64,000 bases of DNA from Alphaproteobacteria bacterium (GCA_035509415.1 DATJLQ010000007.1:696-64695); one strand, 5' to 3'. Numbered from the stretch's first letter, positions 13,046 to 34,394 are shown. The notes: generated by a model not told the origin, from the letters alone. Numbers and translations are program-made.

Positions 13046-14236
13046 ATGGCCGGCTATGAAGTGTTCGGCGAGGAAGAGCGCCGCGCGATCAACGAGATTT
13101 TCGACCTCAACGGCGGCATCCTGTTCGCCCACGGCTTCGACGCCCTCCGGAAGGGCGTCTACCGCGTGCGCGAGTTCGAGCGCGCCTTCGCGACGCGTCT
13201 CGGCGCCAAGCACGCCCAGGCGGTTTCGTCCGGGACCGCCGCGATCAAGGTGGCGCTTCAGGCGCTCGGCGTCGGGCGCGGCGACGAGGTGATCACCCAG
13301 TCCTTCACCTTCGTCGCAACCGTCGAGGCGATCCTCGAGACCGGCGCCAAGCCGGTGATCGTCGACATCGACGACACGCTGAACATGGACCCGCGCGCGT
13401 TCGAGGCGGCGATCACGCCCAAGACCAAGGCGGTGGTGCCGGTGCACATGATGGGCGAGGCGGCGGCGCTCGACGAAATCGTCGCCATCGCGCGGCGCCA
13501 CAAGATCCTGGTCATGGAGGACACCGCCCAGGCGCTCGGGGCGCGCTACAAGGGCCGCATGCTCGGCACCATCGGCGACATCGCCGCCTTCAGCACCGAC
13601 GCGGGCAAGACCATCAACACGGGCGAGGGCGGGCTCGTGGTCACCAACGAGGATGCGCTCTACGAGCGCGCGCGCGGTCTCCACGATCACGGCCACGAAT
13701 ACAGCAAGACCCTCGGGCGCGGTCAGGAGGGGGCGATCTGCGTCGGCTTCAACTTCCGCATGACCGAGCTCCAGGGTGCGGTCGGCCTGGCGCAGCTCGC
13801 GAAGCTCGACATGATCGTCGGGCGCCAGCGCGAGAACAAGGCGAAGCTCATGGCGCGCCTCAGGAAGCTGCCGCTCAAGTTCCGCCGCAGCCTGGATGGC
13901 GCGGGCGATCTCTCCGACACGATCGTGTTCTTCCTCGCGAGCTCCGCCAAGGCGAACGCTTTCGTCGCCGAGATGGCGAAGGAGGGGCTGGGGACGAAGA
14001 ACCTGCCCGACGCGGTGCGTTGGCATTTCGCGCGCCATTGGCAGCACATGTTCGAGGCGACCGGCTATTACCGCGACAGCTACCGGAGCGAATGGCGCGC
14101 CTCGGCCGATCTCCTCGAGCGCGCGGTCGCGATCCCGGTCATGGTCAAGATGGACGACGCGCGCATCGACACCGTGGCGTCCAAGCTCGAATCGATCACC
14201 GAGCGCGTCGTCTCGTCGAACGAGCCCGCCGCTTGA
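13046..14236 (+). CDS. DegT/DnrJ/EryC1/StrS-family PLP-dependent aminotransferase or dehydratase.
   Basis: Family-typical sequence (TGEGGLVVTNEDALYERARGLHDHG, FNFRMTELQGAVGLAQLAKLD). The upstream ORF extension is a frame artefact. Confidence 0.8.
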   Translation: MAGYEVFGEEERRAINEIFDLNGGILFAHGFDALRKGVYRVREFERAFATRLGAKHAQAVSSGTAAIKVALQALGVGRGDEVITQSFTFVATVEAILETGAKPVIVDIDDTLNMDPRAFEAAITPKTKAVVPVHMMGEAAALDEIVAIARRHKILVMEDTAQALGARYKGRMLGTIGDIAAFSTDAGKTINTGEGGLVVTNEDALYERARGLHDHGHEYSKTLGRGQEGAICVGFNFRMTELQGAVGLAQLAKLDMIVGRQRENKAKLMARLRKLPLKFRRSLDGAGDLSDTIVFFLASSAKANAFVAEMAKEGLGTKNLPDAVRWHFARHWQHMFEATGYYRDSYRSEWRASADLLERAVAIPVMVKMDDARIDTVASKLESITERVVSSNEPAA

Positions 14237-14955
14237 CGCTTCTCGCCTTCATTCCCGCGCGCGGCGGCTCAAAAGGAATCCCGCGCAAGAACATGGCGCT
14301 TCTCGCGGGCCGGCCGCTGCTCGGCTATACGCTCGCCGCGGCCAAGGCGTCGCGCGCGGTCTCCGAGATTTTCGTCTCGACCGACGATGACGAGATCGCG
14401 GCATTCTCCGAGGCCGAAGGCGTCGCGGTTCCCTATCGCCGCCCGAAGGCGCTCGCGACCGACACGGCACCCATCATCGACGCGGTCGTCGACGCGCTCG
14501 ATTGGCGCATGCGCGCGGGGCTGAGCGAGCCGGCTGCGATCGCGCTCCTGCAGCCGACCTCGCCCTTTCGTGCCGCCGCCGATATCGACCGCGCGGCTGC
14601 GGAATTCGAGGCGTCGGGCCGCGAGAGCCTGGTCGCGGTGCACGAAATGGCCGAGCATCCTTACGAATGCGTGCGCGCGAGCGGGGAGGGCTGGAGCCCG
14701 CTCGCGACGCCGCCCACCCCCGCGACGCGACGCCAGGATTACGGCCCCGAGCGCTTTCTTTTCATCAACGGCGCCCTCTATATCGCGACGCCCAGATTCC
14801 TCAGGCGGCGCCACGCCTTCGTCGTTCCCGGCGAGACGGCGCTCTTCGAGATGGACCCGGTGCGGGGCGCCGACATAGACGATCTCGACGATTGGCATCG
14901 CGCCGAGGCGCTGCTCGCCTCGCCCGCGCTCAAGGGGCGCTTGGCGCTCGCCTAG
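14233..14955 (+). CDS. Acylneuraminate cytidylyltransferase-family protein (CMP-nonulosonic acid synthetase, NeuA/LegF-like).
   Basis: TTG start overlaps the upstream stop (TTGA). N-terminal LAFIPARGGSKGIPRKN signature of the CMP-NeuAc/KDO synthetase family. Confidence 0.75.
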   Translation: MTLLAFIPARGGSKGIPRKNMALLAGRPLLGYTLAAAKASRAVSEIFVSTDDDEIAAFSEAEGVAVPYRRPKALATDTAPIIDAVVDALDWRMRAGLSEPAAIALLQPTSPFRAAADIDRAAAEFEASGRESLVAVHEMAEHPYECVRASGEGWSPLATPPTPATRRQDYGPERFLFINGALYIATPRFLRRRHAFVVPGETALFEMDPVRGADIDDLDDWHRAEALLASPALKGRLALA

Positions 14956-14985
14956 AACGACACGCTCGCTTGGAAGGACGACGAG

Positions 14986-16140
14986 ATGCCGAGCCGCGAC
15001 AACGACCCCTATTTCCGCCATCTGCGCCGCGTCGTCGACGAAAGCGATCCTGCGCTTTCGGACGACGCGAAGTCGCGCGCCTGGGCCGAGGGCGAGCGAG
15101 TCCACGCCGAGGTGCTGGCGCCGTTGAAGCTCGCGGGGCGCACGATCCTGCTGGTGGGTGGGGCGGGCTATATCGGGACGCCGCTCACGGCGGCCTTGCT
15201 CGAGCGCGGCTACGGGGTCGTGTGCCTCGATTTGCTGCTCTACCGCAACCAAGCGTGCGTCACGCCGTTTCTCGGCCATCCACGTTATCGCTTCGTGCGC
15301 GGCGATCTCGCCGACGCGGCCGCAATCGAGCGCGCGCTCGAGGGGGTGAGCGACGCGATCCTGCTCGCGGGCCTGGTCGGCGACCCCATCACCGCGCGTT
15401 ATCCCGAGCATGCCCAGGCGATCAACGACGAGGGCATGGCTTCGCTGATCGCGCGGCTCAAGGGGCGCGGGCTCAACAAGCTCGTGTTCGTCTCGACCTG
15501 CTCGAACTACGGCGAAATTCCCGCCGACGCCACGGCGGACGAGGAATTCCCGTTGAAGCCTCTCTCGCTCTACGCCAAGGCCAAGGTGCGCATGGAGGGC
15601 CTCGTGCGCGACGCGCGCGGCAACGCGGACTATTGCGCGACCGTGTTGCGTTTCGCGACCGCCTTCGGCCTCTCGGGCCGCATGCGCTTCGACCTCACGG
15701 TGAGCGAGTTCACGCGCGACCTGTTCGCGGGCCGCACCCTCGAGGTCTACGACGCCGATACCTGGCGCCCCTATTGCCATGTGCGCGATTTCGCGCGCGC
15801 CCTCATCCGCGTGCTCGAGGCGCCGCGCGCGGACGTGGCCTTCGAGGTGTTCAACGCGGGCGGCGACGTGAACAATTTCACCAAGGGCATGATCGTGGAC
15901 GCGGTGCGCAAAGAGCTGCCGCGGGCGCAGTTCAAGTTCGTCGAAGGCGGGCGCGACCGGCGCAATTACCGCGTCGACTTCGCCAAGATCCGACGCGTGC
16001 TCGGCTTCGAGCCGCGCGTCACGGTGGCGGACGGGATTCGCGAGCTGGTCGCGGCCTTGGGCCAGGGCTTCTTCGCCGATTACGACGACCGGCTCGATTT
16101 CTACCGCAACCGGGAAATCGCCTACCAACGCCCGCGATGA
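14986..16140 (+). CDS. NAD-dependent epimerase/dehydratase (extended SDR), a candidate nucleotide-sugar 4,6-dehydratase.
   Basis: GxxGxxG (LVGGAGYIGTPL) and YxxxK (YAKAK) motifs. 384 aa. Confidence 0.75.
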   Translation: MPSRDNDPYFRHLRRVVDESDPALSDDAKSRAWAEGERVHAEVLAPLKLAGRTILLVGGAGYIGTPLTAALLERGYGVVCLDLLLYRNQACVTPFLGHPRYRFVRGDLADAAAIERALEGVSDAILLAGLVGDPITARYPEHAQAINDEGMASLIARLKGRGLNKLVFVSTCSNYGEIPADATADEEFPLKPLSLYAKAKVRMEGLVRDARGNADYCATVLRFATAFGLSGRMRFDLTVSEFTRDLFAGRTLEVYDADTWRPYCHVRDFARALIRVLEAPRADVAFEVFNAGGDVNNFTKGMIVDAVRKELPRAQFKFVEGGRDRRNYRVDFAKIRRVLGFEPRVTVADGIRELVAALGQGFFADYDDRLDFYRNREIAYQRPR

Positions 16141-17360
16141 GCAGCATTTCTTCCAGTCCCGTGACGAAGCCGACGCTCGACTCCGCGACCGATCCTGCGG
16201 TGGCCGCCGTGCTCGCGGCGTTGCGCCAAGTGGCCGGTGCTGCCGCGAATGCGCCGATCGGCCTTCATGAGCCCGAATTCGCGGGCCGCGAATGGGATTA
16301 CGTCAAATCCTGCCTCGATACGGGGTGGGTCTCGTCGGCGGGCGCGTTCGTCGACCGGTTCGAGCGCGAGCTCGCGGACTACACGGGCACGCGTCATTGC
16401 ATCGCGACGGTCAACGGCACGGCGGCACTCCATCTGGCGTTGCGCTTGGCCGGCGTCGAAGCGGGCGACGAGGTGATCGTGCCGACCATCGGCTTCATCG
16501 CGACCTGCAACGCGGTTTCCTATTGCGGCGCCGTGCCTCATCTCGTCGATAGTAACGAAACGACTCTCGGCATGGATCCGGCGAAGCTCGGCTCCTGGCT
16601 CGACGAGATCGCCGAGCGTCGCACCGGCGGCGCGCTCTTGAACCGCCGCACGGGACGGCGCCTCGCGGCAATCGTGCCGATGCACACCTTCGGCCATCCG
16701 GTCGAGATCGATGCGCTCCTCGAGCTCGCCGCGCGTTGGAACATTCCGCTCGTCGAGGACGCGGCCGAATCCTTGGGCTCGACCTATCGCGGGCGCCATT
16801 GCGGCAGCTTCGGGCGTTTGGCGGCGCTGAGTTTCAACGGCAACAAGATCGTGACGACCGGGGGCGGCGGGGCGGTGCTCACCGACGATGCCGAGCTCGC
16901 GCGCCGCGCGAAGCATCTTTCGACCACGGCCAAGCTCTCGCACCGCTGGCGCTTCGACCATGACGAGGTCGGCTACAATTACCGCCTTCCGAACTTGAAC
17001 GCGGCCTTGGGCTGCGCACAGCTCGAGCGCATGCCGTCCTTCCTCGCGCGGAAGCGCCGCCTCGCGGAATCCTACCGCGCCGCCTTCGCCGGCATTGCGG
17101 GCGTGCGCGTCTTCGAGGAGCCGGCCCACGCGCAGAGCAACTACTGGCTCAACGTCATCCTGGTCGAGCCTAAGCTGCGCGACCCGATCCTCGCCGCCAC
17201 CAACGAGGCCGGGCTCATGACGCGTCCCGCTTGGACGCCGATGCATCGCCTCCCCATGTACGAGTCGGCGCCGCGTATGGACGATCTCTCGGTCGCTGAG
17301 GAGATCGAGCGTCGCCTGATCAATCTTCCGAGCAGCGCGGGCCTCGCGGGCCATGACTAG
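16137..17360 (+). CDS. LegC/PseC-type nucleotide-sugar aminotransferase (DegT family).
   Basis: ATGA overlap. Motifs WDYVKSCLDTGWVSSAG and SFNGNKIVTTGGGGAVLT are typical of UDP/GDP-4-keto-6-deoxy sugar aminotransferases. Confidence 0.85.
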   Translation: MSSISSSPVTKPTLDSATDPAVAAVLAALRQVAGAAANAPIGLHEPEFAGREWDYVKSCLDTGWVSSAGAFVDRFERELADYTGTRHCIATVNGTAALHLALRLAGVEAGDEVIVPTIGFIATCNAVSYCGAVPHLVDSNETTLGMDPAKLGSWLDEIAERRTGGALLNRRTGRRLAAIVPMHTFGHPVEIDALLELAARWNIPLVEDAAESLGSTYRGRHCGSFGRLAALSFNGNKIVTTGGGGAVLTDDAELARRAKHLSTTAKLSHRWRFDHDEVGYNYRLPNLNAALGCAQLERMPSFLARKRRLAESYRAAFAGIAGVRVFEEPAHAQSNYWLNVILVEPKLRDPILAATNEAGLMTRPAWTPMHRLPMYESAPRMDDLSVAEEIERRLINLPSSAGLAGHD

Positions 17361-18567
17361 TCCGACGCCCCGGAAAGTCTGCGTCGTCACCGGCTCGCGC
17401 GCGGAATACGGCATCCTGCGCCCGCTGCTCGCGGCCCTCAAGGCAGACCCGGGCTTCGAGCTCCGGCTCGTCGTGTGCGCGATGCATCTCTCGGCCACCT
17501 TCGGCCTCACCTATCGCGAGATCGAGGCGGACGGCTTCGCGATCGACCGCCAGGTCGAGATGGCGCCCGACGCGGACACGGCCGCCGGGGTGACGAAGTC
17601 GATCGGCCGCGGCTGCATCGGCTTCGCCGACGCCTTTGCCGAGCTCAAGCCCGATCTCCTGGTTCTTCTGGGCGACCGCTACGAGATTCTGGCCGCGGCG
17701 GCGGCGGCGCTCGTCGCGCGCATTCCGGTCGCGCACATCCACGGCGGCGAGCTCACCGAGGGCGCCATCGACGACGCGATCCGGCACGCGGTCACCAAGA
17801 TGTCCCATCTCCATTTCTGCGCCGCCGAGACCTATCGCCAACGCGTGATCCAGCTCGGCGAGGCGCCCGAGCGCGTATTCACCGTGGGCGCGCTCGGCCT
17901 CGACAATCTCGCTGCCATCCCGCTCATGAGCCGGCACGAGCTCGAGACCGATCTCGATTTCCGCTTCGGCGACCGGATGGTGGTCGTGACTTACCATCCG
18001 GCGACCCTCGAGGCGGGCGATCCCGCGGCCGGGCTCGCCGCACTCCTCAAGGCGCTCGACCGGTTCCCCGAATTGCGCGCGGTGATCACCTATCCCAACG
18101 CGGATGCGGGGGCGAACGCGCTCATCGACGGGATCGAGGCCTACGCCGCGCGGCGCAAGGGCCGCGTCCTCCTGGTGAAGTCGCTCGGCACCCGGCGTTA
18201 TCTGAGCCTCGTGGCCCAGGCCGCCGCAGTTATCGGCAATTCGTCGAGCGGCATCATCGAGGTTCCGTCCTTCCGCGTGCCCACGGTCAATCTCGGCACG
18301 CGCCAACGTGGCCGCCTGCGCGCGGCGTCGATCGTCGATTGCGCCGAGGAGCCGGAGGCGATCCTGCGCGCGATCCAGACCGCACTCTCGTCCGAGTTCC
18401 GCGCAGGGCTCATGGGCATGGCGAATCCCTATGGCGACGGCAAGACCGCGCCGCGCATTCTCGAGCGCCTGCGCGCGGCCGATCTCGAGGCGCTGCCGAT
18501 GAAGCGCTTTTACGATCTGCCGCGCGTGACGGCGGACGCGCGCGAGACGGCGGCGGCGAATCCATGA
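17353..18567 (+). CDS. neuC: UDP/GDP-N-acetylglucosamine 2-epimerase (hydrolysing), NeuC/LegG family.
   Basis: Motifs KVCVVTGSRAEYGILRPLL and HIHGGELTEGAIDDAIRHAVTKMSHLHF are characteristic of NeuC. Confidence 0.85.
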   Translation: MTSPTPRKVCVVTGSRAEYGILRPLLAALKADPGFELRLVVCAMHLSATFGLTYREIEADGFAIDRQVEMAPDADTAAGVTKSIGRGCIGFADAFAELKPDLLVLLGDRYEILAAAAAALVARIPVAHIHGGELTEGAIDDAIRHAVTKMSHLHFCAAETYRQRVIQLGEAPERVFTVGALGLDNLAAIPLMSRHELETDLDFRFGDRMVVVTYHPATLEAGDPAAGLAALLKALDRFPELRAVITYPNADAGANALIDGIEAYAARRKGRVLLVKSLGTRRYLSLVAQAAAVIGNSSSGIIEVPSFRVPTVNLGTRQRGRLRAASIVDCAEEPEAILRAIQTALSSEFRAGLMGMANPYGDGKTAPRILERLRAADLEALPMKRFYDLPRVTADARETAAANP

Positions 18568-19637
18568 CGCGCACGCTCGTCATCGCCGAGGCCGGGGTCA
18601 ATCATAACGGCTCGGCCGAGCTCGCGCTCGAGCTCGTCGACGTCGCGGCGGCGGCGGGCGCCGACGTGGTCAAGTTCCAGACCTTCCGCGCCGACGCGCT
18701 CGTCACGCGCGACGCCCCCAAGGCCGCGTACCAGAAGGAGCGCACTGCCGGCGACGATCAATACGCGATGCTCAAGGCGCTCGAGCTCGACCGCGCGATG
18801 CATGAGCGGCTCGCCGCGCGCTGCACGGAGAAGGGGATCGAGTTTCTCTCGACCGCCTTCGACCTCGAGAGCCTGGACCTCGTGGTCGCGACGGGCGTCA
18901 AGCGCCTCAAGATTCCATCGGGCGAGATCACCAACGGCCCGTTCCTCCTGGCCGCCGCGCGCAAGAAGCTTCCCATGGTGCTTTCGACCGGCATGTCGAC
19001 CCTCGACGAGATCGAGGAAGCGCTCGGCGTCGTCGCCTTCGGCCTCCTCGCGCCGTCGCAATCGAAGCCGACCCGCGCCGCTTTCGCCGAGGCCTTTCGC
19101 GCCCCCGAGGCCGCGGCGGCATTGCGCGCCAAAGTGACGCTGCTTCATTGCACCACGAGCTATCCGGCCGCGCTCGCGGACGTGAATTTGCGCGCCATGG
19201 ACACGATGGCCGAGCGCTTCGGCCTTCCGGTCGGCTATTCCGACCACAGCGAGGGGATCGAAGTGGCGCTCGCGGCGGTGGCGCGCGGGGCCACCACCCT
19301 CGAGAAGCACTTCACGCTCTCGCGCGATTTGCCGGGCCCGGACCACAAAGCCTCCCTCGAGCCCGCCGAGCTCAGGGCGATGATCGCGGGCATCCGGCGC
19401 GTCGAGGCGTGTCTCGGCAGTGCCGCCAAGGCGCCGACCGCGGCCGAGCGTCCGATGCAGGGGATCGCGCGTCATAGCCTCGTCGCCGCGTGCGCGATCG
19501 CGGCGGGCGAGGTGTTCAGCGAAAGGAACCTCGCCTCGAAGCGGCCCGGCACCGGCCTTTCGCCCATGGGCTATTGGGACCTGCTCGGCCGCCGCGCCGC
19601 GCGCGCCTACGCGCCCGACGAGCTGATCGACCAATGA
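18564..19637 (+). CDS. neuB: N-acylneuraminate (nonulosonic acid) synthase NeuB/LegI with C-terminal SAF domain.
   Basis: ATGA overlap. N-terminal LVIAEAGVNHNGS and a complete SAF/antifreeze-like C-terminus. The upstream ORF extension is an artefact. Confidence 0.9.
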   Translation: MTRTLVIAEAGVNHNGSAELALELVDVAAAAGADVVKFQTFRADALVTRDAPKAAYQKERTAGDDQYAMLKALELDRAMHERLAARCTEKGIEFLSTAFDLESLDLVVATGVKRLKIPSGEITNGPFLLAAARKKLPMVLSTGMSTLDEIEEALGVVAFGLLAPSQSKPTRAAFAEAFRAPEAAAALRAKVTLLHCTTSYPAALADVNLRAMDTMAERFGLPVGYSDHSEGIEVALAAVARGATTLEKHFTLSRDLPGPDHKASLEPAELRAMIAGIRRVEACLGSAAKAPTAAERPMQGIARHSLVAACAIAAGEVFSERNLASKRPGTGLSPMGYWDLLGRRAARAYAPDELIDQ

Positions 19638-19648: not shown

Positions 19649-20863
19649 TCAATCGCGCGGCTTTGCGCCGTCGGAATAAACCGCGTCGCCGAGGAGGGCC
19701 CGCGCGGCCGTGAGCGCCGTGGGCTCGCGCGAGGCGCCGGGGCGGGCGAGGAAAGCGCGCGCATAGGCGTCGTAGGCCGCGTCGTCGAGCGTGGCCCAAT
19801 CGCGCGGCAACGCGGGCTCGGCCATGTCGAGCCGCGGCGCGCCGAGCCAGCTTGCGAAGCGCGCGATCGTGACGCCGTAGGGAGTCGCTTCCATCGCGGC
19901 GCCCGCGAGCAGCAGCACCGGCTTCCGGAACGCGACCGCGAAGCCGAGCGAGGTCGAGCAATGGGCGAGCACGAGACGCGCCCCCCGTACGAGCGCCGCC
20001 GTGCGGCCTTGCGCGATCTCGCGCCCGCCGAAGAGCTCGGCGGACCCGTAGCGCGCCTTGGGATGGGCGGCCACGACGACGTTGAGCCCGGTCTCGCGCT
20101 CGATGCGGTCGAAGGCGTTGCGCAGCAGCTCGAAATAGCGCTCCGGTGCGATGGGCGGCGGCGCCGCGCCGATGAGCGCGAAATCGGGATGGGATACGAA
20201 CATCTCATCGAGGAACACGGCATAGGCGCCGTCGGGTGCGGGCTCGGGCCGCGCCATCTCGGCGCGCGCGAGGCCCATGTCGAAGCTCTCGACGTCGACC
20301 ACGCGCGCGCGCGCGGGATGGGGGAAATGGGCCGTAAGCGCGCCGGGCGCATCCCCCGCCTTGAGCCAGATTGCCGGTGCGGCGAGTGCCGCGTAGCCGA
20401 GATCCCGGTCGAAGCGCCGGCACGCGAAACGCTTTGCGAGATGAGCCCAAAGGAGCGCATCCTGCGCGCGCGCGTGGAGATATTCATCCATGCCGCGCGT
20501 CGTCTTCCAGGGGCGGCGATGGAAAGTCGGGAGGGCGCCTTGGGTGAAGACCGCGTAGCGCACGCCCTTTCGCGCGAAGAGCCGGTAGAGCCAGGCGCTC
20601 TCATGATTGAGCGCCACGTCGGCCAGGACCGCGTCATGATCGGTGAGGCGCGCGAGATGGCTTTCGGCCGCCGCGACCGTTTGAGGCCGCACGGTGCTGG
20701 GGAAGAGAGGGGCTGCGGCCCCATCGACCGTGAGGCCGACCGGCCCATGGAGCTCGACGATCTCGACCTCGAGCCCGCGGCGCCGTGCCTCGTCGAGGCC
20801 GAGACGGGCCCAATCCCGCTCGGCGAACACGCCGCCATAGACGAAGACGATCCGGCTTGCCAT
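19649..20863 (-). CDS. Hypothetical protein. Possibly a GT-B-like glycosyl (ulosonic-acid) transferase.
   Basis: About 404 aa from the internal ATG at 20863. The ATG at 20941 would overlap the divergent ABC gene. The C-terminal half has Rossmann-like VVVAAHPKARYG...LVLAHCSTSLGFAVAFRKPVLLL. No confident family. Confidence 0.5.
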   Translation of the reverse strand: MASRIVFVYGGVFAERDWARLGLDEARRRGLEVEIVELHGPVGLTVDGAAAPLFPSTVRPQTVAAAESHLARLTDHDAVLADVALNHESAWLYRLFARKGVRYAVFTQGALPTFHRRPWKTTRGMDEYLHARAQDALLWAHLAKRFACRRFDRDLGYAALAAPAIWLKAGDAPGALTAHFPHPARARVVDVESFDMGLARAEMARPEPAPDGAYAVFLDEMFVSHPDFALIGAAPPPIAPERYFELLRNAFDRIERETGLNVVVAAHPKARYGSAELFGGREIAQGRTAALVRGARLVLAHCSTSLGFAVAFRKPVLLLAGAAMEATPYGVTIARFASWLGAPRLDMAEPALPRDWATLDDAAYDAYARAFLARPGASREPTALTAARALLGDAVYSDGAKPRD

Positions 20864-26079: not shown

Positions 26080-27221
26080 CCGTGCCCAAGCGCGAGGACG
26101 GCGGCGCTCCAAGGATGGGCGCGGCCCCGCGGCCCCGGGACCATCTCGCCGGCTTGAGCCGCGACAGCGATTGTCTCGGCGAGCGCACGCGCTTCGTGTG
26201 CCTCGACCGGAACGAGCGGCCGAGCGCGTGGCCGGAGGCGGATTTCCGCGCGGCCCTCGCGACCCTCAAGCCGACCGACTTCAATCATTATCCCGATCTC
26301 GGCCCGCTCTATGAGCGGCTGGTGCGCGCGACCGGCTTGCCCCAGGCGCGGCTTGCGGTGGGTGCCGGCTCGGACGCCCTCATCCGGCGCGCGCTTCACG
26401 CCTATCTCAGGCCAGGCGACAAGCTGCTCTCGCCCGATCCGAGCTACGGCATGTACGCGGTGTGGGCGCGTATCTTCGAGGCGGAGCATGTCGCGGTCCC
26501 CTACGGCGCCGATCTGCGTCTCGACCTCGACGGCTTCATCGCGCGCATCGAGACGGCGCGGCCGCGCGTGGTCGCGATCGCCAACGCCGACCAACCGACC
26601 GGCGCCATGCTCGCGCGCGACTCCCTGCTCGCCATCGTCGATGCCTGCGCGCGCATGGGCGCGTTGTGCCTCGTCGACGAGGCCTATCACCCGTTCTCGC
26701 CCGTGACCCTGCTCGGCGACGTGCGCGACCGTCCGTCGCTCCTGGTGCTGCGTAGCTTCTCCAAGAGCGGCGGCATCGCGGGCCTGCGCGTCGGCTTCGC
26801 CGCGGGCGACGCGGAGGCGATCCGCGCCCTCCACGCCGTGCGCAGCCCGGGCGAGGTCGCCTCGCTCTCGGCCGCGATCGCCTGCTACCTGCTCGACCGG
26901 CCGGAGATTTTCGAGCGCCATCGCGCCGAGGTCGAGGAGGGGCGCGCGCGCCTCCTCGCGGCGGCGGCGTCGCTCGGCTTCGAATGCCCGCCCTGCCACG
27001 GCAATTTCCAGCTCGTGCGCACGGCGCCGCTCGCGCCCAAGGCGCTCGCCGCAGCCCTCGAGCGGCGCGGCTACCTCGTCCGCGCCGGCTTCGGCTTCGC
27101 GCCCCTCAAGGACGCGATCCGCGTGACGCTCGACGGCCCGGCGGTGATCGATCCCTTCGTCGCGGCGCTCGAGGAAAGCTGCGCCGAGCTGCGCGCGGCC
27201 GCGGCACCCGCCGGCACCTGA
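26076..27221 (+). CDS. HisC-like class I/II PLP-dependent aminotransferase (CobD-type decarboxylase not excluded).
   Basis: ATGA overlap. PLP-lysine region SFSKSGGIAGLRVGF is typical of histidinol-phosphate aminotransferase and CobD homologues. Confidence 0.75.
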   Translation: MTVPKREDGGAPRMGAAPRPRDHLAGLSRDSDCLGERTRFVCLDRNERPSAWPEADFRAALATLKPTDFNHYPDLGPLYERLVRATGLPQARLAVGAGSDALIRRALHAYLRPGDKLLSPDPSYGMYAVWARIFEAEHVAVPYGADLRLDLDGFIARIETARPRVVAIANADQPTGAMLARDSLLAIVDACARMGALCLVDEAYHPFSPVTLLGDVRDRPSLLVLRSFSKSGGIAGLRVGFAAGDAEAIRALHAVRSPGEVASLSAAIACYLLDRPEIFERHRAEVEEGRARLLAAAASLGFECPPCHGNFQLVRTAPLAPKALAAALERRGYLVRAGFGFAPLKDAIRVTLDGPAVIDPFVAALEESCAELRAAAAPAGT

Positions 27222-27266: not shown

Positions 27267-28358
27267 ATGACCGTGAAGATCGCCCTCATCGGCTGCGGCC
27301 GCGTCGCCGGCCATCATCTGCGCTCGGTCGCCTCGATCGAGGGCGCCCAGGTGGTCGCGGTGTGCGACCTCGTGGCCGACAAGGCGCGCGCATACGGCGA
27401 GAAGTTCAACGTCGCCTGGTTCACCGACTACCACGCCATGCTGCGCGCGCTGCCGGAGATCGACGTGGTCTCGATCATCACGCCGTCGGGCATGCATGCC
27501 GAGCACGGCATCGACGTGATGCGCCGCTACAAGAAGCACATCCTGGTCGAGAAGCCGACCTTCATGCACCCGGCGCAGCTCAACGAGGCCTACGACCTCG
27601 CCGAGGCGTCGGGCTTGCGCATCTTTCCAGTGTTCCAGAACCGCTACAATCGCGCCGTGGCGCGGGTCAAGGCAGCACTCGCGCGCGGCGAGCTCGGCGA
27701 GATCCGCATCATGGCGGTGCGCGTGCGCTGGTGCCGGCCCCAGCGCTATTACGAGCTCGCACCCTGGCGCGGCACCTTCTCCCACGATGGCGGCTGCCTC
27801 GGCAATCAGGGCATCCACCATATCGATCTGCTGCGCTATCTCGGCGGCGAGGTCGACCGGCTCAATGCCACGCTACGCACCCTTGGCGCCACGATCGAGG
27901 TCGAGGACACGGCGATCGCCACGCTCACCTACCGCAGCGGGGCCGTGGGCGTGGTCGAGGTCACGACGGCGGCGCGACCGGACGATTTCGAGGCGTCGCT
28001 CTCGATCGTGGGCTCGAAGGGGCTCGCCGAGCTCGGCGGCTGGGCGGTCAACGAGCTCCGGACCTTCACGCCCGATCCGGCCGTTTGCGCCGAGGCGAGC
28101 GAGAAGTTTCCCGACGTCTACGGCTTCGGCCATTTCGAGGTCTATCGCAACCTGGTGGCCGACCTCGCCGGGCGCCGGTCCTTTCCGGTCGACCGGCGCG
28201 ACTGTCTCAGCTCGATCAACCTGCTCCACGCCTTCTATCGCTCCGACGAGGAGGGCGGCTGGATCGACGTCGCGGCGGGCCGCGCGTCCGACCGGCTGGG
28301 CCGGCCGAACGAGGCGCTCTCCAACCTCTACCGCACGCCGGCGCCGAGCGCGCCCTGA
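27267..28358 (+). CDS. Gfo/Idh/MocA-family oxidoreductase.
   Basis: N-terminal KIALIGCGRVAGHHL Rossmann fold and EKP motif (ILVEKPTF). Confidence 0.8.
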   Translation: MTVKIALIGCGRVAGHHLRSVASIEGAQVVAVCDLVADKARAYGEKFNVAWFTDYHAMLRALPEIDVVSIITPSGMHAEHGIDVMRRYKKHILVEKPTFMHPAQLNEAYDLAEASGLRIFPVFQNRYNRAVARVKAALARGELGEIRIMAVRVRWCRPQRYYELAPWRGTFSHDGGCLGNQGIHHIDLLRYLGGEVDRLNATLRTLGATIEVEDTAIATLTYRSGAVGVVEVTTAARPDDFEASLSIVGSKGLAELGGWAVNELRTFTPDPAVCAEASEKFPDVYGFGHFEVYRNLVADLAGRRSFPVDRRDCLSSINLLHAFYRSDEEGGWIDVAAGRASDRLGRPNEALSNLYRTPAPSAP

Positions 28359-28361
28359 AAG

Positions 28362-29147
28362 TTGCCGCTCGTGACCGCGAAGAACATCGTCTACCGGACC
28401 GACGGGATCGCGCGCTATTTCGAGCGCCATCGCCGCCATTGGGACGAGTTCTATCCCTCCGAGCGCTGGGTGTTCGAGGCGATCGCGCGCGAGCGGTCGA
28501 GCCTCGGCGCGGTGCTCGACGTCGGCTGCGCGTTGGGCGGCCTGGGCACGGCCTTGGCCGAGCGCTTCCCGCTCGAGCGCTATGTCGGCGTCGACATCAA
28601 CCGCCAGGCGATCGAGGCGGCGCAGGCGCGTCCCGCCGCGATCCCGAGCGAGTTCATCGCGGGCGATATTTGCGATTGCGCGCCGCTTGCGGGCCGCGTC
28701 TTCGATCTCGTCGCGGCGCTGAGCGTGGTCGATTGGAATCTCGACGGCACCGGCATCCTCAAGGCGTGCTGGGAGCGCGTGGCGCCGGGCGGCCATCTCG
28801 TGCTTTCGCTCCGGCTCACCCCGGGCGCGGGCGTGCGCGATCCCGCGCGAAGCTTCCAGTACATCTGGCACGGCGCCGAGCCGCCGCCCGCGGACGCGGA
28901 GCGCGCACCCTATGTGGTGCTCAATGGGGTCGACGCGCTGCGGCTTCTCGCGAGCCAAGTGCCCGCACCCGCGCGCATTCTCGGCTACGGCTATTGGGGC
29001 CGTCCGTCCGCGACCGCGCGCACGCTTTACGAGCGGCTCGTCTTCGCGGTGTTCGCGCTCCGCAAGGCCGCGGCGGGCGAGACGCCGGACGAGCCGGCGC
29101 TCGAGCTTCATTTGCCATCGTCGGTGCTGCTTCCGGCGGCGCGATGA
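28362..29147 (+). CDS. Class I SAM-dependent methyltransferase.
   Basis: Motif I VLDVGCALGGLG. Non-ATG (TTG) start assumed. 261 aa. Confidence 0.65.
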   Translation: MPLVTAKNIVYRTDGIARYFERHRRHWDEFYPSERWVFEAIARERSSLGAVLDVGCALGGLGTALAERFPLERYVGVDINRQAIEAAQARPAAIPSEFIAGDICDCAPLAGRVFDLVAALSVVDWNLDGTGILKACWERVAPGGHLVLSLRLTPGAGVRDPARSFQYIWHGAEPPPADAERAPYVVLNGVDALRLLASQVPAPARILGYGYWGRPSATARTLYERLVFAVFALRKAAAGETPDEPALELHLPSSVLLPAAR

Positions 29148-31024
29148 CGGGCGCGGCCGAGATCGTCATGCTGCCCGCGGACGAGGCGAGCCCGGATGCG
29201 CTCGAAGCGTGTGCCGCGCGCGGCGCCTTCGCGGTGCTTTATCTGGGATCGTCCTTCGCGGCCCTGGCCGCGCTCGAGCGCGCGCTCCCCGCGGGCTGGA
29301 CGCTGGTGCCGGTGGGCGACGGGCTGCGGCGTGCGGCGGAGTCGCTACGCCGGGAATTCCTCGATCTCGACGCCGCGGTGCTGCGCCCGGGTGTCGCGCG
29401 CGATTGGTGGGACGCGACCCATCTCGGCGAGCGCAATCCCTTGTCCTCGACCCTCGGGCTCGATCTCGCGCGTTTCTTTTTTCTGCTCGAGACGCTGCGG
29501 CGCCACGAGCGATTGCTCGTGCTGTGCGACGATCGCGCGCGTTGCCGCCTCTACGACGCCGAGATGCGCCGCCGCGGCCATCGCGTCGGCTGGGGCGGGC
29601 CGGGACGCGCGCGGCCATTGGGCGAGGGGGTGCGCGCCATCGGCTACGTCTTGCGTTGCCTTGCGCGCGGCGTCCGGGTCCGGCTTCGCGGCTGCGCCGA
29701 CTATCGCCGGCGCCGCCGCCTGTTGCGCTCGCTTCGACTTGCGCGGCCGCTCGACCTCGAAGGTTTACGGCGCGCCCGGGTGCTGCTGGTCTCGTGGCTA
29801 CGCGCCGAGACCTTTCCGCCGGGTGCGGCCTTGCCCGACGACGCCTATCTCCCGGGCTTCGCGGCGACCGCGACGGCCGCGGGCGAGGGCGTCGCCTATC
29901 TCATGCGCGCGGCTCCCGGGCTCGAGGATTACGCGGCCGCGGCGCAGGGTGCCCTCGCCTCGAGGGTTCCAGTGCTGATGTTCGAGGAGCTGGCGCCCGC
30001 GGGCGCGATGCTCGCGGCGGCGTTCATTTCCATGGCGCTGCCGTGGCGCGTGCCGCGCGCGACGCTCGCGGGCGAGGACGTGGGCGCCATCCTACGTCTC
30101 GGCGCCTGGCGCGAGCTCGGCAGCTTCGACGTCGTGACCGCCTTCGGCCACAAGGCCCTGTGCCAGACGCTCGCGCGGCTCGGCGCCGCACCCGCCTCGC
30201 TCGCCCATCCCTACGAGCATCAGCCCTGGGAAAAGATGCTGCGCCGAGGATTGCGCCGCTGGCTGCCCGATGCGCGCGTGATCGGGGTGCAGCACGTCCC
30301 GTTCGCCCGGACCTATCTGAGCCTGTTTCCGAGCCGGCGCGAGATCGAAAGCGGCCTCATTCCGGACCGGCTTTTGGTCGCGGGCGAGGGATACGCGGAC
30401 TGGTTCCGCGCCGTGGGTTTCCCTCCCGGGCGCCTCGCGGTTCTGGGCGCCGTGCGTTATGCCAAGCCGTCGCGCGCGGCCGAAACGGGAGGCCGTGGTA
30501 TCCTGTGTTGCACGAGCATCGATCTCGCGGAATCGATCGAGCTCGTCGCCAAGGCAGCGCTCGCGAGCCGCGGGCTCGGCCGCACCGTCACGGTCAATTA
30601 TCACCCCGCGACGGGCGAGGATTTCCGCCGCGCGTTGCGCGAGGGGGCGGCGCGCATCGCAGGCGGCGACCTCGACCATCTCGGCTACGTCGACGCACCG
30701 GCCGCGACGCTCCTCGACGACGCGCACCTGGTCCTTTATTGCACCTCGGCCGCGGTCTTCGACGCGCTGCTTGCGGGCAAGCCTGCGGTCTTCGTCGGGC
30801 GCGAGACCGATCTCGACTACGACAAGGCGCCCGACGGATTGACGACGCGGTGCCGCACGGTCGGGGAATTGCGCGCGATCCTGGCCGCTTCCTTTGCCGA
30901 GCCCGCCGGCGACGCGGCGCGCGCGCCGCGTACGGCCGAGCTCGAGCGCTGGATCGCGCCGGTCAAGGAGTCGATCCTGCGCGCGGCCCTGTCGCTCGCG
31001 CCGCGCGAAGCCGTTCCGGCGTGA
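29144..31024 (+). CDS. Large hypothetical protein (626 aa). A candidate glycosyltransferase, possibly of the KpsC/KpsS capsule-synthesis type.
   Basis: ATGA overlap with the upstream stop. Two-lobed Rossmann-like organisation. No confident motif match. The long ORF 26984-31024 is a frame artefact. Confidence 0.5.
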   Translation: MTGAAEIVMLPADEASPDALEACAARGAFAVLYLGSSFAALAALERALPAGWTLVPVGDGLRRAAESLRREFLDLDAAVLRPGVARDWWDATHLGERNPLSSTLGLDLARFFFLLETLRRHERLLVLCDDRARCRLYDAEMRRRGHRVGWGGPGRARPLGEGVRAIGYVLRCLARGVRVRLRGCADYRRRRRLLRSLRLARPLDLEGLRRARVLLVSWLRAETFPPGAALPDDAYLPGFAATATAAGEGVAYLMRAAPGLEDYAAAAQGALASRVPVLMFEELAPAGAMLAAAFISMALPWRVPRATLAGEDVGAILRLGAWRELGSFDVVTAFGHKALCQTLARLGAAPASLAHPYEHQPWEKMLRRGLRRWLPDARVIGVQHVPFARTYLSLFPSRREIESGLIPDRLLVAGEGYADWFRAVGFPPGRLAVLGAVRYAKPSRAAETGGRGILCCTSIDLAESIELVAKAALASRGLGRTVTVNYHPATGEDFRRALREGAARIAGGDLDHLGYVDAPAATLLDDAHLVLYCTSAAVFDALLAGKPAVFVGRETDLDYDKAPDGLTTRCRTVGELRAILAASFAEPAGDAARAPRTAELERWIAPVKESILRAALSLAPREAVPA

Positions 31025-31097: not shown

Positions 31098-31973
31098 ATG
31101 ACCGCCCAGCCCGTCCGCATCGGCAAGAAGTCCGTCGGTCCCGGCCAGCCCTGCTACATCGTGGGCGAGATCGGCATCAACCACAATGGCGACCTCGCGA
31201 TCGCGAAGAAGCTCATCGACCGAGCGGTCGAATTCGGCTTCGACGCGGTCAAGTTCCAGAAACGCACGGTCGACGTGGTCTACACGCCCGAGGATCTGGC
31301 GCGCGAGCGCGAATCGCCGTTCGGCAGCACCAATGGCGACCTGAAACGCGGCCTCGAGTTCGGCGCGGCGCAATACAAGGAAATCGATGCGTATTGCCGC
31401 GCGCACGGCATCGATTGGTTCTGCTCGCCCTGGGACGAGGGCAGCGTCGACTTTCTCGAGCGCTTCGACCCCGTATGCTACAAGATCGCGTCGGCCTGCC
31501 TGACCGACGACGGGCTCCTCAAGCACATCAAGGCCACGAAGCGTCCGATCGTCCTCTCGACCGGCATGAGCACGCTCGACCAGATCGACCGCGCGGTCGC
31601 GATCCTCGAGGGCACGCCGCTCATCCTTCTCCACACCAACTCGACCTATCCCTCGAAGCACGAGGAGCTCAACCTCTCGGTGATTGCGAGCTTGCGCGCG
31701 CGTTACGGGAAGCCGGTCGGCTACAGCGGCCACGAGCCGGACGTGATCCCATCGGTCATGGCGGCGTCTGCCTACGACGCCTGCATGGTCGAGCGCCACA
31801 TCACCCTCGACCGCGCGATGTGGGGCACCGATCAGGCGGCGAGCCTCGAGCCGCGTGGCATGGAGCTGATGGCGAAATACATCCGCACTTGGGAAGTGGT
31901 GCGCGGCGACGGCAAGAAGCGCGTTTACGACAGCGAGATCCCGATCCTCAAGAAGCTGCGCCGGGTCGGCTGA
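31098..31973 (+). CDS. NeuB-family sugar-acid synthase lacking a C-terminal SAF domain (KDN/Neu5Ac-9-phosphate-synthase-like or PseI-like).
   Basis: RBS AGGAG 7 nt upstream. N-terminal CYIVGEIGINHNGDL and the NeuB TIM-barrel core. 291 aa, with no SAF domain. Confidence 0.8.
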   Translation: MTAQPVRIGKKSVGPGQPCYIVGEIGINHNGDLAIAKKLIDRAVEFGFDAVKFQKRTVDVVYTPEDLARERESPFGSTNGDLKRGLEFGAAQYKEIDAYCRAHGIDWFCSPWDEGSVDFLERFDPVCYKIASACLTDDGLLKHIKATKRPIVLSTGMSTLDQIDRAVAILEGTPLILLHTNSTYPSKHEELNLSVIASLRARYGKPVGYSGHEPDVIPSVMAASAYDACMVERHITLDRAMWGTDQAASLEPRGMELMAKYIRTWEVVRGDGKKRVYDSEIPILKKLRRVG

Positions 31974-31990: not shown

Positions 31991-33148
31991 ATGACCGCGA
32001 CGCTCCGCCTTCTGCATTTGGTGAACAGCCACAGCACCAACGTGGGCAATGGGGCGCTCGCCGACGGTGCCGAGCGCGTGCTGGGCGAGGATCTGGCGGC
32101 ACCGGTCTCGTGGTCGCGCGTGCCGTGGGACGATTACACCTTCGGGCTCAAGAAATTCGATCGGGATTTCGTAGGCGCGATCAACCGCTCGGACGGCATG
32201 ATCGTGGGCGGTGCGGTCACGATCAACGGGCGCGCCTATCTCGAGCACGCGGGCATGCGCTTCGACCTTCCGCCAGCGCTTTGGCCGGAGATCCGTAAAC
32301 CATTGATCTTCTACGGGATTTCCTACCGACATTGGGCGGGCCAGCGGTTCCATCACGCGGACAAGCTGCGTTGGGCGTTCGACCACGCGCTCGGGCGCCA
32401 AGACATGCTGCTCGCGTTGCGCAACGACGGCACGCGCGAATGGCTCGAAGGCGCGCTCGGCATCGCGAGCGATCGGCTCCACGTAATCCCCGATCCCGCG
32501 GTGTTCGTCGAAGCCGACGACGCGGCGGCCGCGGCGGACGATCTTGCGCTCGATCCCGGGCGACCCAACATCGTGCTCGCCCTCAACGACGAGGATTCGG
32601 CCGAGCGCTACGGCACACCCGAGCGGCGCATGGAAGTGCTGCGCGGGATTGCCCAGGCGCTCGAGCCCGTGCTCGATGCGCGCGGCGCAAATCTCGTCTT
32701 GGCGCCCCATTATTTCGACGATCATCGCATGATCGCCGACTTCATCGCGTGCTGCCGCCCGCAGCTCGCGCACCAGCGCATGATCTCGACCGGCCTCGCG
32801 CGCATGGCGGACGCGAAGCGCTTCTACGGCCGCTACGCCCGTGCCCAGCTCGTGATCGCGATGCGCGTCCACGCCATGTCGCCCTCGATCGGCCTCGGCG
32901 TGCCGATGATCCCGCTCGTGACCCAGGACCGGCTCGGCCGCTTTCTCGACGATGTCGGCTTGGGCGACCTGGCGATCGACGCGCTCGCACCCGATCTCGC
33001 GGGTCGCCTCCGCGTTGCCATCGAGGCGGCGCTCGACCGGCCCGACGAGCTGCGGCGCCGCTTCCGCGTCACGCGCGACGGCATGCGCGCGCGGCTCGGT
33101 GCCTTCAATCGAAAGGTGGGGGAATTGCTTCATGGCCAAACGCGCTAA
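31991..33148 (+). CDS. Polysaccharide pyruvyl transferase family protein (CsaB/WcaK-like).
   Basis: 385 aa. PS_pyruv_trans-like pattern (LHLVNSHSTNVGNGAL...). Confidence 0.7.
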   Translation: MTATLRLLHLVNSHSTNVGNGALADGAERVLGEDLAAPVSWSRVPWDDYTFGLKKFDRDFVGAINRSDGMIVGGAVTINGRAYLEHAGMRFDLPPALWPEIRKPLIFYGISYRHWAGQRFHHADKLRWAFDHALGRQDMLLALRNDGTREWLEGALGIASDRLHVIPDPAVFVEADDAAAAADDLALDPGRPNIVLALNDEDSAERYGTPERRMEVLRGIAQALEPVLDARGANLVLAPHYFDDHRMIADFIACCRPQLAHQRMISTGLARMADAKRFYGRYARAQLVIAMRVHAMSPSIGLGVPMIPLVTQDRLGRFLDDVGLGDLAIDALAPDLAGRLRVAIEAALDRPDELRRRFRVTRDGMRARLGAFNRKVGELLHGQTR

Positions 33149-33644
33149 GTCCGCCGCGCGTCCGCGTCTCGATCCGGCGCGCGTGGCGCTCATCGTGTTC
33201 GATTTCGACGGCGTGCTCACCGACAACCGCGTGCTTGTGCTCGAGGACGGACGCGAGGCGGTCCTTTGCAGCCGCGCCGACGGGCTCGGCTTCGACGCGT
33301 TGCGCGCGGCGCGCATTCCGACGCTCATTCTCTCGACCGAGCGCAATCCGGTGGTGGCGGCGCGCGCGCGAAAGCTCGGCGTGCCGGTGCTCCAGGCGGT
33401 CGCCGACAAGGCGCAGGCGCTCGAGGCCCATTGCATTGCCGCGGGCATCGCGCTCGCGAGCGTGGTCTATGTCGGGAACGACCTCAACGATCTCAAGGCC
33501 ATGGGGACGGTCGGGCATCCGGTCGCGGTCGCCGACGCCCATGAGCGTGTGCGTAAGGCGGCGCGTTACGTGCTTAAAGCGGCGGGCGGCGAGGGGGCCG
33601 CGCGCGAGCTGGTCGAGCGGCTCATGGGCCTCGCGGTCGGATAG
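33132..33644 (+). CDS. KdsC-family HAD-IIIA phosphatase (3-deoxy-ulosonate-phosphate or acylneuraminate-9-phosphate phosphatase-like).
   Basis: Motif I VFDFDGVLTDN and C-terminal GNDLNDL motif as in KDO-8-P and KDN-9-P phosphatases. Confidence 0.8.
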   Translation: MAKRAKSAARPRLDPARVALIVFDFDGVLTDNRVLVLEDGREAVLCSRADGLGFDALRAARIPTLILSTERNPVVAARARKLGVPVLQAVADKAQALEAHCIAAGIALASVVYVGNDLNDLKAMGTVGHPVAVADAHERVRKAARYVLKAAGGEGAARELVERLMGLAVG

Positions 33645-33647
33645 GCG

Positions 33648-34394
33648 ATGGCCGAGATTCTCGCCCTCATTCCCGCGCGCGGCGGGTCGAAGTCGATCCC
33701 GCGCAAGAACCTGCTCCCGCTCGCGGGGCGGCCGCTCATCGTCCATTCGATCGAGCAGGCGCGCGCCTCGCGCCTGGTTTCGCGCGTGATCGTCACGACC
33801 GACGACGCCGAGATCGCGGCGGTCGCCAAGGCGGCGGGTGCCGAGGTGCCGTTCTTGCGGCCCGCCGAGCTCGCGCGCGACGACTCCCTCGACATCGAGT
33901 TTCATCGCCACGCGCTCGACTGGCTCGGCGCGCAAGAGCGCTATCGGCCCGACGCCGTCGTCAATCTTCGGCCCACCAATCCGACCCGGCGCCCCGCGAC
34001 CATCGACCGCGCGATCGAGACGTTCCTCGCCCATCCCGAGGCGGATTCGCTCCGCTCGGTCTCGCTCGCCGAGCAAACGCCCTACAAAATGTGGCTCATC
34101 GGCGCCGATGGCTGCTTGGCGCCGGTGGCCGCGCTCCCGGGCACGACCGAGCCCTACAACCTTCCGCGCCAGCGCCTGCCGCTGGTCTATTGGCAGAACG
34201 GCTATGTCGACATCGCCTGGACGCGCACCGTGATGGAGAAGCAATCGACCACGGGGACGCGCATCCTGCCCTTCGTGATCGAGGAGCGGAGCGTCGACAT
34301 CGACTATCCGGACGAGGTCGCGGACGCCGAACGCGCCATCGCCGAGGGCGACGCCGAGGCGAACGGCTCGGCCGGAAAGCGTCACCCGTCATGA
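33648..34394 (+). CDS. Acylneuraminate cytidylyltransferase-family protein (third paralogue).
   Basis: N-terminal LALIPARGGSKSIPRKN. Confidence 0.8.
   Translation: MAEILALIPARGGSKSIPRKNLLPLAGRPLIVHSIEQARASRLVSRVIVTTDDAEIAAVAKAAGAEVPFLRPAELARDDSLDIEFHRHALDWLGAQERYRPDAVVNLRPTNPTRRPATIDRAIETFLAHPEADSLRSVSLAEQTPYKMWLIGADGCLAPVAALPGTTEPYNLPRQRLPLVYWQNGYVDIAWTRTVMEKQSTTGTRILPFVIEERSVDIDYPDEVADAERAIAEGDAEANGSAGKRHPS

Follow-up and report, generated by a model that had tools for sequence, protein, structure and literature searches.

Nonulosonic acids cap bacterial surface glycans and are decisive for recognition by immune systems and by phages; their forms activated with cytidine monophosphate (CMP) are hard to obtain chemically. 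The present analysis concerns an island of genes (g01 to g26) for such sugars in a stretch of 64,000 nucleotides from Alphaproteobacteria bacterium (GCA_035509415.1, DATJLQ010000007.1:696-64695), hereafter called the window. The island carries three cytidylyltransferases (CT1, CT2 and CT3) of the type that activates sugar acids with CMP, together with two NeuB-type synthases and three sugar aminotransferases.

Several described systems resemble parts of this island. The nonulosonic acid (NulO) cluster of Leptospira interrogans contains several aminotransferases, two synthases, one of which is fused to a phosphatase, and at least two CMP synthetases (Ricaldi et al. 2012, PMC3438082). The CMP-legionaminic acid pathway of Campylobacter jejuni consists of PtmE, LegB, LegC, LegH, LegG, LegI and LegF; within it, LegB is the NDP-GlcNAc 4,6-dehydratase that leads to the 9-deoxy acid. 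Another Campylobacter enzyme, Cj1427, is a GDP-heptose C4-dehydrogenase that oxidises its substrate without dehydrating it (PMC10680097). In Shewanella oneidensis, KdnB and KdnA (Protein Data Bank entries 5k8c and 5k8b) convert 3-deoxy-D-manno-octulosonic acid (Kdo) to its 8-amino derivative (Kdo8N), changing the terminal CH2OH of the free ulosonic acid to CH2NH2 ahead of CMP activation. As the account of Gattis et al. (2013) is relayed in PMC5125639, Kdo8N is formed by oxidation and then transamination. Streptomyces walls contain a polymer of ketodeoxynonulosonic acid (Kdn) (PMC11481543), and a PhoP-activated NeuA/NeuB operon lies in a Streptomyces cluster for a phosphate-free wall polymer (PMC3479208). 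Finally, ElaA, ElaB and ElaC of Acinetobacter baumannii KL49, a Gfo-type oxidoreductase, a cytidylyltransferase and a short-chain dehydrogenase/reductase (SDR), are responsible for C8 epimerisation of CMP-Leg5,7Ac2 (PMC13656337).

Judged by its gene content, the island is a dual-NulO locus with three conserved enzyme sets. Like the Leptospira cluster, it holds a complete legionaminic-type pathway together with another synthase that lacks the SAF domain and is tied to a phosphatase, and has extra aminotransferases and CMP synthetases. In the window, however, the phosphatase is a separate gene, and several elements are found there only: a third cassette (2-hydroxyacid dehydrogenase of the 2-Hacid_dh family, HAD phosphatase, SDR and CT2), a pair of Gfo-type oxidoreductase and SDR, a gene of the pyruvyl-transferase family, and an iron-dependent alcohol dehydrogenase (Fe-ADH) with a KdnA-like transaminase. 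On balance, the region from 10.1 to 37.6 kb is regarded as supplying the sugar precursors within a surface-glycan locus that spans about 38 kb and adjoins lptD, lptG and lptF, and as holding three independent CMP-activation units, A (g01-g09), B (g10-g19) and C (g20-g26); this explanation as a whole, the three units included, is judged somewhat probable.

The window has a G+C content of about 70%, which fills mechanical lists of open reading frames (ORFs) with false frames; genes were therefore called from third-position GC periodicity and start-codon context. Third-position G+C is about 0.85-0.90 in the called frames of the island genes, no internal stop occurs in any of the 29 translated genes, and the genes are likewise called in public copies of the contig, including a short NeuB of 291 aa. 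Between 10.0 and 37.6 kb nearly all genes lie on the plus strand, mostly with 4-bp overlaps, and form two co-directional operons, g01-g09 and g11-g26, with g10 as a single divergent gene.

In Pfam searches, three intact cytidylyltransferases (CTP_transf_3) were found at 14233-14955 (E 6e-19), 25333-26079 (E 5e-14) and 33648-34394 (E 2e-22), in agreement with a preliminary description of the window. The two synthases and three aminotransferases which that description had listed were found as well: NeuB with SAF at 18564-19637 (E 1e-90), NeuB without SAF at 31098-31973 (E 8e-69, 291 aa), two DegT-family enzymes at 13046-14236 and 16137-17360, and one class I/II enzyme at 26076-27221. It also stated correctly that every cytidylyltransferase is accompanied by a tailoring set of its own, and unrelated genomes contain such sets as recurring units. 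Pairwise identity is 30-38% among the three cytidylyltransferases, 31% between the two NeuB proteins and 35% between the two DegT proteins, and the paralogues proved to be neither pseudogenes nor recent duplicates. The notion that they are redundant or decaying copies without functional consequence is refuted at the level of sequence and can be regarded as extremely improbable: all are intact, show strong coding periodicity, are 30-38% identical to one another and have close homologues in conserved context, and no support for redundancy was found.

Two or three ulosonic acids had been proposed. Because the two synthases differ in type, two different acids are implied, and this part of the proposal stands; a third acid is not supported, as no third synthase is present, and the third cytidylyltransferase may therefore activate something else. 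The cytidylyltransferases were compared by scores against curated models and solved structures, in place of a phylogeny. All three are far closer to the NeuA and PseF structures than to KdsB, and on the KdsB models their best scores (44-61 bits) stayed below the cutoffs of 155-281. The pseudaminic pathway likewise fell short of its model cutoffs: PseI 240 bits for the synthase g09 (cutoff 340), PseC 220 and 236 bits (423), and PseF 126, 72 and 120 bits (206). No PseB, PseG or PseH domain was found among the island genes. When cytidylyltransferase homologues in 87 loci from other genomes (numbered below with the prefix L) were assigned to their best window paralogue, the contexts of CT3 and CT2 separated, and Streptomyces enzymes were ambiguous between CT1 and CT3.

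As far as family models and gene order indicate, unit A is a legionaminic-type operon that departs from the standard pathway in g06, g04 and g03. Its genes are:

10077-10739, plus strand: g01, NeuD/LegH-type N-acetyltransferase (PglD_N and Hexapep; TIGR03570, 208 bits, cutoff 161)
10736-11791, plus strand: g02, PtmE-like CBS and sugar-1-phosphate nucleotidyltransferase (CBS and NTP_transferase; 50% identical to the syntenic gene in L091)
11730-12989, plus strand: g03, Fe-dependent alcohol dehydrogenase, proposed oxidase supplying g04 (Fe-ADH and ADH_Fe_C; 62% identity in syntenic L091; translation probably starts slightly downstream of 11730)
13046-14236, plus strand: g04, KdnA-like aminotransferase (DegT)
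14233-14955, plus strand: g05, cytidylyltransferase CT1 (CTP_transf_3; 4-bp overlap with g04)
14986-16140, plus strand: g06, extended SDR in the LegB position, probably a C4-dehydrogenase and not a 4,6-dehydratase (model scores and motif)
16137-17360, plus strand: g07, LegC-family aminotransferase (TIGR04181, 534 bits, cutoff 420)
17353-18567, plus strand: g08, NeuC/LegG-type hydrolysing 2-epimerase (TIGR03568, 476 bits, cutoff 236)
18564-19637, plus strand: g09, NeuB/LegI-type synthase (NeuB/NnaB model) with SAF (NeuB and SAF; TIGR03569, 460 bits, cutoff 400)

A TTG start at 14233 is required for g05, because the next ATG, at 14293, would lose the nucleotide-binding loop IPARGGSKG. As in Campylobacter jejuni, PtmE-like, LegC, NeuD/LegH, NeuC/LegG and NeuB/LegI functions are represented, here in one operon, but the window lacks a LegB-type dehydratase and adds the Fe-ADH and the KdnA-like transaminase. 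On the LegB model TIGR04180 (cutoff 475), g06 scored 47 bits and the SDR g14 of unit B 105 bits. The best structural match of g06 is 6vo6 (145 bits, compared with 93 for the next), presumably Cj1427. Where 4,6-dehydratases carry T-D-E, g06 has the motif STCSNYG with no Asp/Glu pair, and an archaeal g06 homologue has S-C-S at the same motif.

The other two departures concern g04 and g03. The top structural match of g04 is KdnA (5k8b, 285 bits, aligned from residue 1), followed by one of 199 bits, a margin of 86 bits, and the Joint Genome Institute (JGI) labels homologues that are 60-77% identical to g04 as Kdo8N transaminase. As with KdnB/KdnA, an oxidase of the Fe-ADH family and a related transaminase stand beside a cytidylyltransferase. 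The window pair differs in lying within a NulO operon, in having a partner that is NeuA/PseF-like and not KdsB, and in an Fe-ADH of another subfamily. The closest solved relatives of CT1 are PseF (6ifd, 121 bits) and NeuA, with KdsB structures at about 24 bits. A Magnetovibrio metagenome-assembled genome (MAG) holds the same nine genes in syntenic order, 45-68% identical, with one NeuB and one cytidylyltransferase (L091). Because this locus keeps all nine genes and has just one synthase and one cytidylyltransferase, g03, g04 and CT1 are taken as part of the unit A pathway. CT1 adjoins the KdnA-like gene on its 3' side in both L091 and L092.

These relationships also bear on another explanation, in which g03 and g04 make Kdo8N for the lipopolysaccharide core, as in Shewanella, and are merely located inside the island. 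The similarity of g04 to KdnA above all others, the JGI annotation and the adjacent lptD, lptG and lptF genes are consistent with it. This is nevertheless considered unlikely, since the g03/g04 pair is kept within the legionaminic-type operon of L091, g04 overlaps the NeuA/PseF-like CT1 with its low KdsB scores, and g03 is not closest to KdnB.

For unit A as a NulO operon, the pathway of g01-g09 would start from a GDP-sugar and give a legionaminic-type di-N-acyl scaffold. The enzyme g06 would oxidise C4 and leave O-6 in place; such oxidation without 6-deoxygenation means that the nine-carbon acid would keep its 9-OH. The products of g03 and g04 may then convert 9-OH to 9-NH2 by Kdo8N logic, and CT1 would activate the 9-amino product, a putative 5,7,9-triamino acid.

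Two further observations concern relatives of this operon. A sulfotransferase gene lies 3' of the unit A operon in the Magnetovibrio locus. In an archaeal MAG (L041), NeuC, LegC and the g06-like SDR with S-C-S stand directly beside a phosphatase, a cytidylyltransferase and a short NeuB, an arrangement that would make sense if a g06-type enzyme leaves O-6 free for phosphorylation.

Unit C contains the second synthase and, to judge from its families and their order, is a phosphate route to an acid of the Kdn/Neu class, probably of Kdn type. It comprises:

31098-31973, plus strand: g20, short NeuB without SAF (Pfam match to NeuB only)
31991-33148, plus strand: g21, polysaccharide pyruvyl transferase family protein (PS_pyruv_trans)
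33132-33644, plus strand: g22, HAD phosphatase resembling KdsC and KDN-9-P phosphatase (KdsC model 92 bits, KDN-9-P phosphatase model 87 bits, both under cutoff)
33648-34394, plus strand: g23, cytidylyltransferase CT3 (CTP_transf_3)
34391-35422, plus strand: g24, Gfo/Idh/MocA oxidoreductase, ElaA/PtmF-like (domain search; co-occurrence with short NeuB, phosphatase, CT3 and SDR)
35419-36267, plus strand: g25, classical SDR, ElaC/PtmA-like (adh_short_C2; best NCBIfam match PRK09186, 154 bits)
36312-37613, plus strand: g26, 433-aa protein, candidate unit C transferase (weak TIGR04396 match, 46 bits)

The best structural match of g20 is 6ncs, a SAF-less chain of 290 aa that is presumably from Leptospira. 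The short NeuB family has more than 8000 homologues, with about 70% identity across many metagenome contigs. Among loci from reference genomes, a KdsC-like phosphatase adjoins the short NeuB in 71 of 80, usually with a cytidylyltransferase present too. The window shows the same grouping of synthase, KdsC-family phosphatase and cytidylyltransferase in the neighbouring genes g20, g22 and g23. CT3 can be tied to the phosphate route because L037 and L087 have CT3-type enzymes as fusions with the phosphatase. Additionally, Polyangiaceae and Anaerolineales share a module of five genes (short NeuB, phosphatase, CT3-type, SDR and Gfo-type) that has no legionaminic genes in its neighbourhood, and g25 is 59-64% identical in the Polyangiaceae modules. 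In the alphaproteobacterial relatives L006 and L086-L088, a pyruvyl-transferase-family gene lies directly 3' of the short NeuB, as in the window, and in L086 a g26 homologue (52%) stands between the phosphatase and the cytidylyltransferase. The AlphaFold2 model of g26 built without an alignment (predicted local distance difference test, pLDDT, 38.5) was unusable.

The set of short NeuB, KdsC-type phosphatase and cytidylyltransferase is shared with the Streptomyces NeuA/NeuB operon (SCO4879-4881, Kdn teichulosonic acid) and with the Kdn-9-P route of Bacteroides. Streptomyces has the bare three-gene form, and g20 is 54-56% identical to its NeuB. The window adds the pyruvyl-transferase, Gfo, SDR and g26 genes, and Kdn as its product is a prediction. 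The genes g23-g25 are adjacent with 4-bp overlaps and present the Gfo, cytidylyltransferase and SDR domains of ElaABC, a likeness in domain types; unlike ElaABC, the window trio is coupled to the route of short NeuB and phosphatase and not to legionaminic acid genes. The search models that the Ela authors used (3ezy, 6uh2) are among the matches of g24 and g25, though not at the top, and no Ela chain was identified among the structural matches.

At the level of family and context, the short NeuB would condense phosphoenolpyruvate with a sugar 6-phosphate, the phosphatase g22 would then remove the phosphate, and CT3 would activate the acid. The substrate may be mannose 6-phosphate, giving Kdn, and the CMP-sugar may afterwards be epimerised by g24 and g25, in the way that CMP-legionaminic acid is by ElaA and ElaC. 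Neither a ManNAc kinase nor NanE was found in the island, which is an argument for mannose 6-phosphate by absence only; on the KDN-9-P phosphatase model, the 87 bits of g22 compare with a cutoff of 180. Some relatives carry genes that are missing from the window. In L086-L088, genes for a B12-binding radical S-adenosylmethionine (SAM) enzyme and an RNase_T-family protein come after the cytidylyltransferase in the short-NeuB module, and L086 has a SIS_2 (GmhA-like) gene beside 2-Hacid_dh. Such additions could change the carbon skeleton; with a heptose phosphate as substrate, the acid would have ten carbons (C10).

Unit B differs from the other two in that no synthase was found in it with Pfam. 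Its genes are:

19649-20941, minus strand: g10, soluble protein (no Pfam or NCBIfam match; no transmembrane segment)
20887-22779, plus strand: g11, fused ATP-binding cassette (ABC) exporter of HepA/MsbA/PglK type (ABC_membrane and ABC_tran; HepA family 469 bits, under cutoff)
22776-23771, plus strand: g12, D-2-hydroxyacid dehydrogenase, PGDH-like, part of the unit B core (2-Hacid_dh_C; 61-63% identical in L089 and L090)
23740-24447, plus strand: g13, HAD-IA phosphatase (HAD families; 43-45% identical in L089 and L090)
24444-25322, plus strand: g14, extended SDR of epimerase/reductase type, part of the core (Epimerase; 72% identical in L089 and L090; no D/E dehydratase pair)
25333-26079, plus strand: g15, cytidylyltransferase CT2, divergent, with no synthase partner, part of the core (CTP_transf_3, residues 4-74 only)
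26076-27221, plus strand: g16, HisC/CobD-like class I/II aminotransferase (Aminotran_1_2; hisC model 206 bits, cutoff 277)
27267-28358, plus strand: g17, Gfo/Idh/MocA oxidoreductase (domain search; IolG model 133 bits, under cutoff)
28371-29147, plus strand: g18, SAM methyltransferase (Methyltransf_11/25; 56% identical in L089)
29144-31024, plus strand: g19, 626-aa protein, candidate transferase for the unit B product (weak TIGR04326 match, 50 bits)

L089 and L090 keep the order ABC exporter, 2-hydroxyacid dehydrogenase, HAD phosphatase, SDR and CT2, and behind it lie methyltransferases, a HisC-like aminotransferase and a g19 homologue (35%); the cassette is conserved in L086 as well. A homologue of g10 (35%) lies directly upstream of the cassette in L089. 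In other alphaproteobacterial metagenome contigs, of which some are assigned to Xanthobacteraceae, the core of 2-hydroxyacid dehydrogenase, SDR and CT2 is found with 61-83% identity. CT2 is the most divergent of the three cytidylyltransferases; it is 80-83% identical in L089 and L090 and 80-90% identical in more than 100 protein clusters, including some Xanthobacteraceae MAGs. The AlphaFold2 model of g19, also made without an alignment (pLDDT 36.5), was unusable. Unit B would activate a separate moiety, which g19 may transfer, and the exporter g11, the glycosyltransferases and upstream genes for 3'-phosphoadenosine 5'-phosphosulfate (PAPS) would assemble and export a sulfated glycan.

Alternatively, CT2 could be a second synthetase for the product of g09 or for a pseudaminic or legionaminic variant, with the unit B enzymes decorating that CMP-sugar by oxidation, transamination and methylation. 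The genes g17, g16 and g18 form such an oxidise-aminate-methylate set, and in L090 the cassette lies 5 kb from a NeuB with SAF and a PseH-like acetyltransferase, with no other cytidylyltransferase in the 20 kb covered. Against this, CT2 is the most divergent of the three, its Pfam alignment covers residues 4-74 only, its loop reads GREGSSGYPGKN instead of ARGGSKGIPRKN, and its conserved partners, the 2-hydroxyacid dehydrogenase and the phosphatase, have no role in known NulO decoration. Such a function for CT2 is viewed as doubtful.

Taken further, the proposals for units A and B make a tentative joint reading, thought possible but less likely than its negation: unit A makes an undescribed 5,7,9-triamino-3,5,7,9-tetradeoxy-nonulosonic acid, and the cassette of 2-hydroxyacid dehydrogenase, HAD phosphatase, SDR and CT2 activates with CMP a moiety other than a 2-keto-3-deoxy acid. 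In the literature collection searched, no paper paired "triamino" with "nonulosonic". In the alphaproteobacterium Magnetospirillum gryphiswaldense, unassigned larger CMP-ulosonic acids that lose ammonia and have two N-acetyl groups have been reported, together with CMP-linked masses resembling N-acetylhexosamine (HexNAc) but lacking keto-acid reactivity (bioRxiv 10.64898/2026.04.20.719630). The triamino and the non-keto-acid readings would fit these species, and the preprint serves as a lead, not as a test.

Several points weigh against the reading of the island as three independent units with these products. The host is a soil alphaproteobacterium represented by an uncultured MAG, and its glycan locus is known here from sequence alone. 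The specificities proposed for the three cytidylyltransferases, the phosphatase g22 and the short NeuB are putative, since each of these proteins stays under all NCBIfam equivalog cutoffs. In unit A, the argument from the g06 motif is indirect, g03 is not a KdnB orthologue (KdnB 5k8c reaches 85 bits and rank 27 among the structural matches, the top one having 149 bits), and L092 has the KdnA-like gene and CT1 with no adjoining Fe-ADH. In unit C, the cytidylyltransferases of Streptomyces Kdn clusters are slightly closer to CT1 than to CT3, and Schoenhofen (2009) reportedly assigned Campylobacter PtmF and PtmA, the domain types of g24 and g25, to precursor supply and not to epimerisation.

The distribution of the units also bears on the suggestion that one acid is heavily remodelled, all cytidylyltransferases and both synthases serving a single NulO that is activated, modified, released and activated again. 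Unit B has no synthase of its own, and units B and C occur together elsewhere: the short-NeuB module is accompanied by 2-Hacid_dh and an additional cytidylyltransferase in L086 and in several loci of Anaerolineales. However, the synthases differ in type, and the short one habitually adjoins a phosphatase, as counted above; unit A stands alone with one cytidylyltransferase in L091, unit C stands alone in Polyangiaceae, and unit B occurs with no short NeuB within the 20 kb covered in L089 and L090. A single remodelled acid is thus held to be improbable.

The preliminary description had called the multiplicity unusual and the product unpredictable from known pathways, and both statements need revision. 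The Leptospira cluster, the Chloroflexi locus L037 (two NeuB and three cytidylyltransferases in 14 kb) and other short-NeuB loci show similar multiplicity; within 10 kb, a second NeuB was present in 8 of 83 short-NeuB loci and at least two cytidylyltransferases in 12 of the 83. These cases and counts make the multiplicity a recurrent design and not a singular event. As to the product, two scaffolds are predictable; what escapes prediction is limited to their decorations and to whatever the third cassette makes.

The island is embedded in other genes of envelope type. Upstream lie genes for HlyD, a TolC-like protein, CysD, CysN/C (PAPS synthesis), a methyltransferase, two glycosyltransferases of family GT4 and a 316-aa protein; downstream follow a PhyH dioxygenase, a methyltransferase and a GT2 glycosyltransferase, and then lptD, lptG and lptF. 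CysD (PAPS_reduct domain) and a CysN/APS-kinase fusion occupy 2498-5202, directly upstream of the glycan genes, a position that suggests sulfation of the glycan or of another envelope product. At the left edge (33-2299) stand the HlyD-type membrane-fusion and TolC-type outer-membrane genes, which could form a tripartite glycan exporter with the HepA/MsbA-like g11. The 316-aa protein (8615-9565, minus strand), between the GT4 genes and unit A, has strong coding periodicity, no match in Pfam or NCBIfam and no transmembrane segment.

A flagellin-glycosylation island was also considered and set aside: no flagellin gene or motility-associated factor (Maf) gene was found among the annotated ORFs, and the island is surrounded by lptD, lptG, lptF, the ABC exporter, GT4, GT2 and PAPS genes. 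These surroundings point to a sulfated envelope glycan instead. A consensus scan gave no promoter-like sites, terminator-like sites were fewer than expected by chance, and neither tRNA genes nor Rfam matches were found. Farther along the window, a 373-aa protein (47441-48562) has only a partial RuBisCO_large match (E 6e-21) and is probably RuBisCO-like and unrelated to the island. In the tail from 60 to 64 kb, G+C falls to 0.56-0.62, with an IS1595-family transposase at 61912-62937 (minus strand). Beside this tail, a sensor kinase (58983-60671) has HisKA without HATPase_c and may be truncated.

Three enzyme sets in this island are both recurrent and uncharacterised. The first comprises the probable C4-dehydrogenase, Fe-ADH and KdnA-like transaminase inside a legionaminic-type operon; the second the short NeuB, phosphatase, cytidylyltransferase, Ela-like redox pair and pyruvyl-transferase-family gene; and the third the cassette of 2-hydroxyacid dehydrogenase, SDR and cytidylyltransferase. 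If the predictions made for them fail, the island remains a clear example of a Leptospira-like dual-NulO locus. Parts of it point to sugars not yet described, and the enzyme sets could connect genes with those unexplained CMP-sugars that mass spectrometry has revealed in alphaproteobacteria from the environment.

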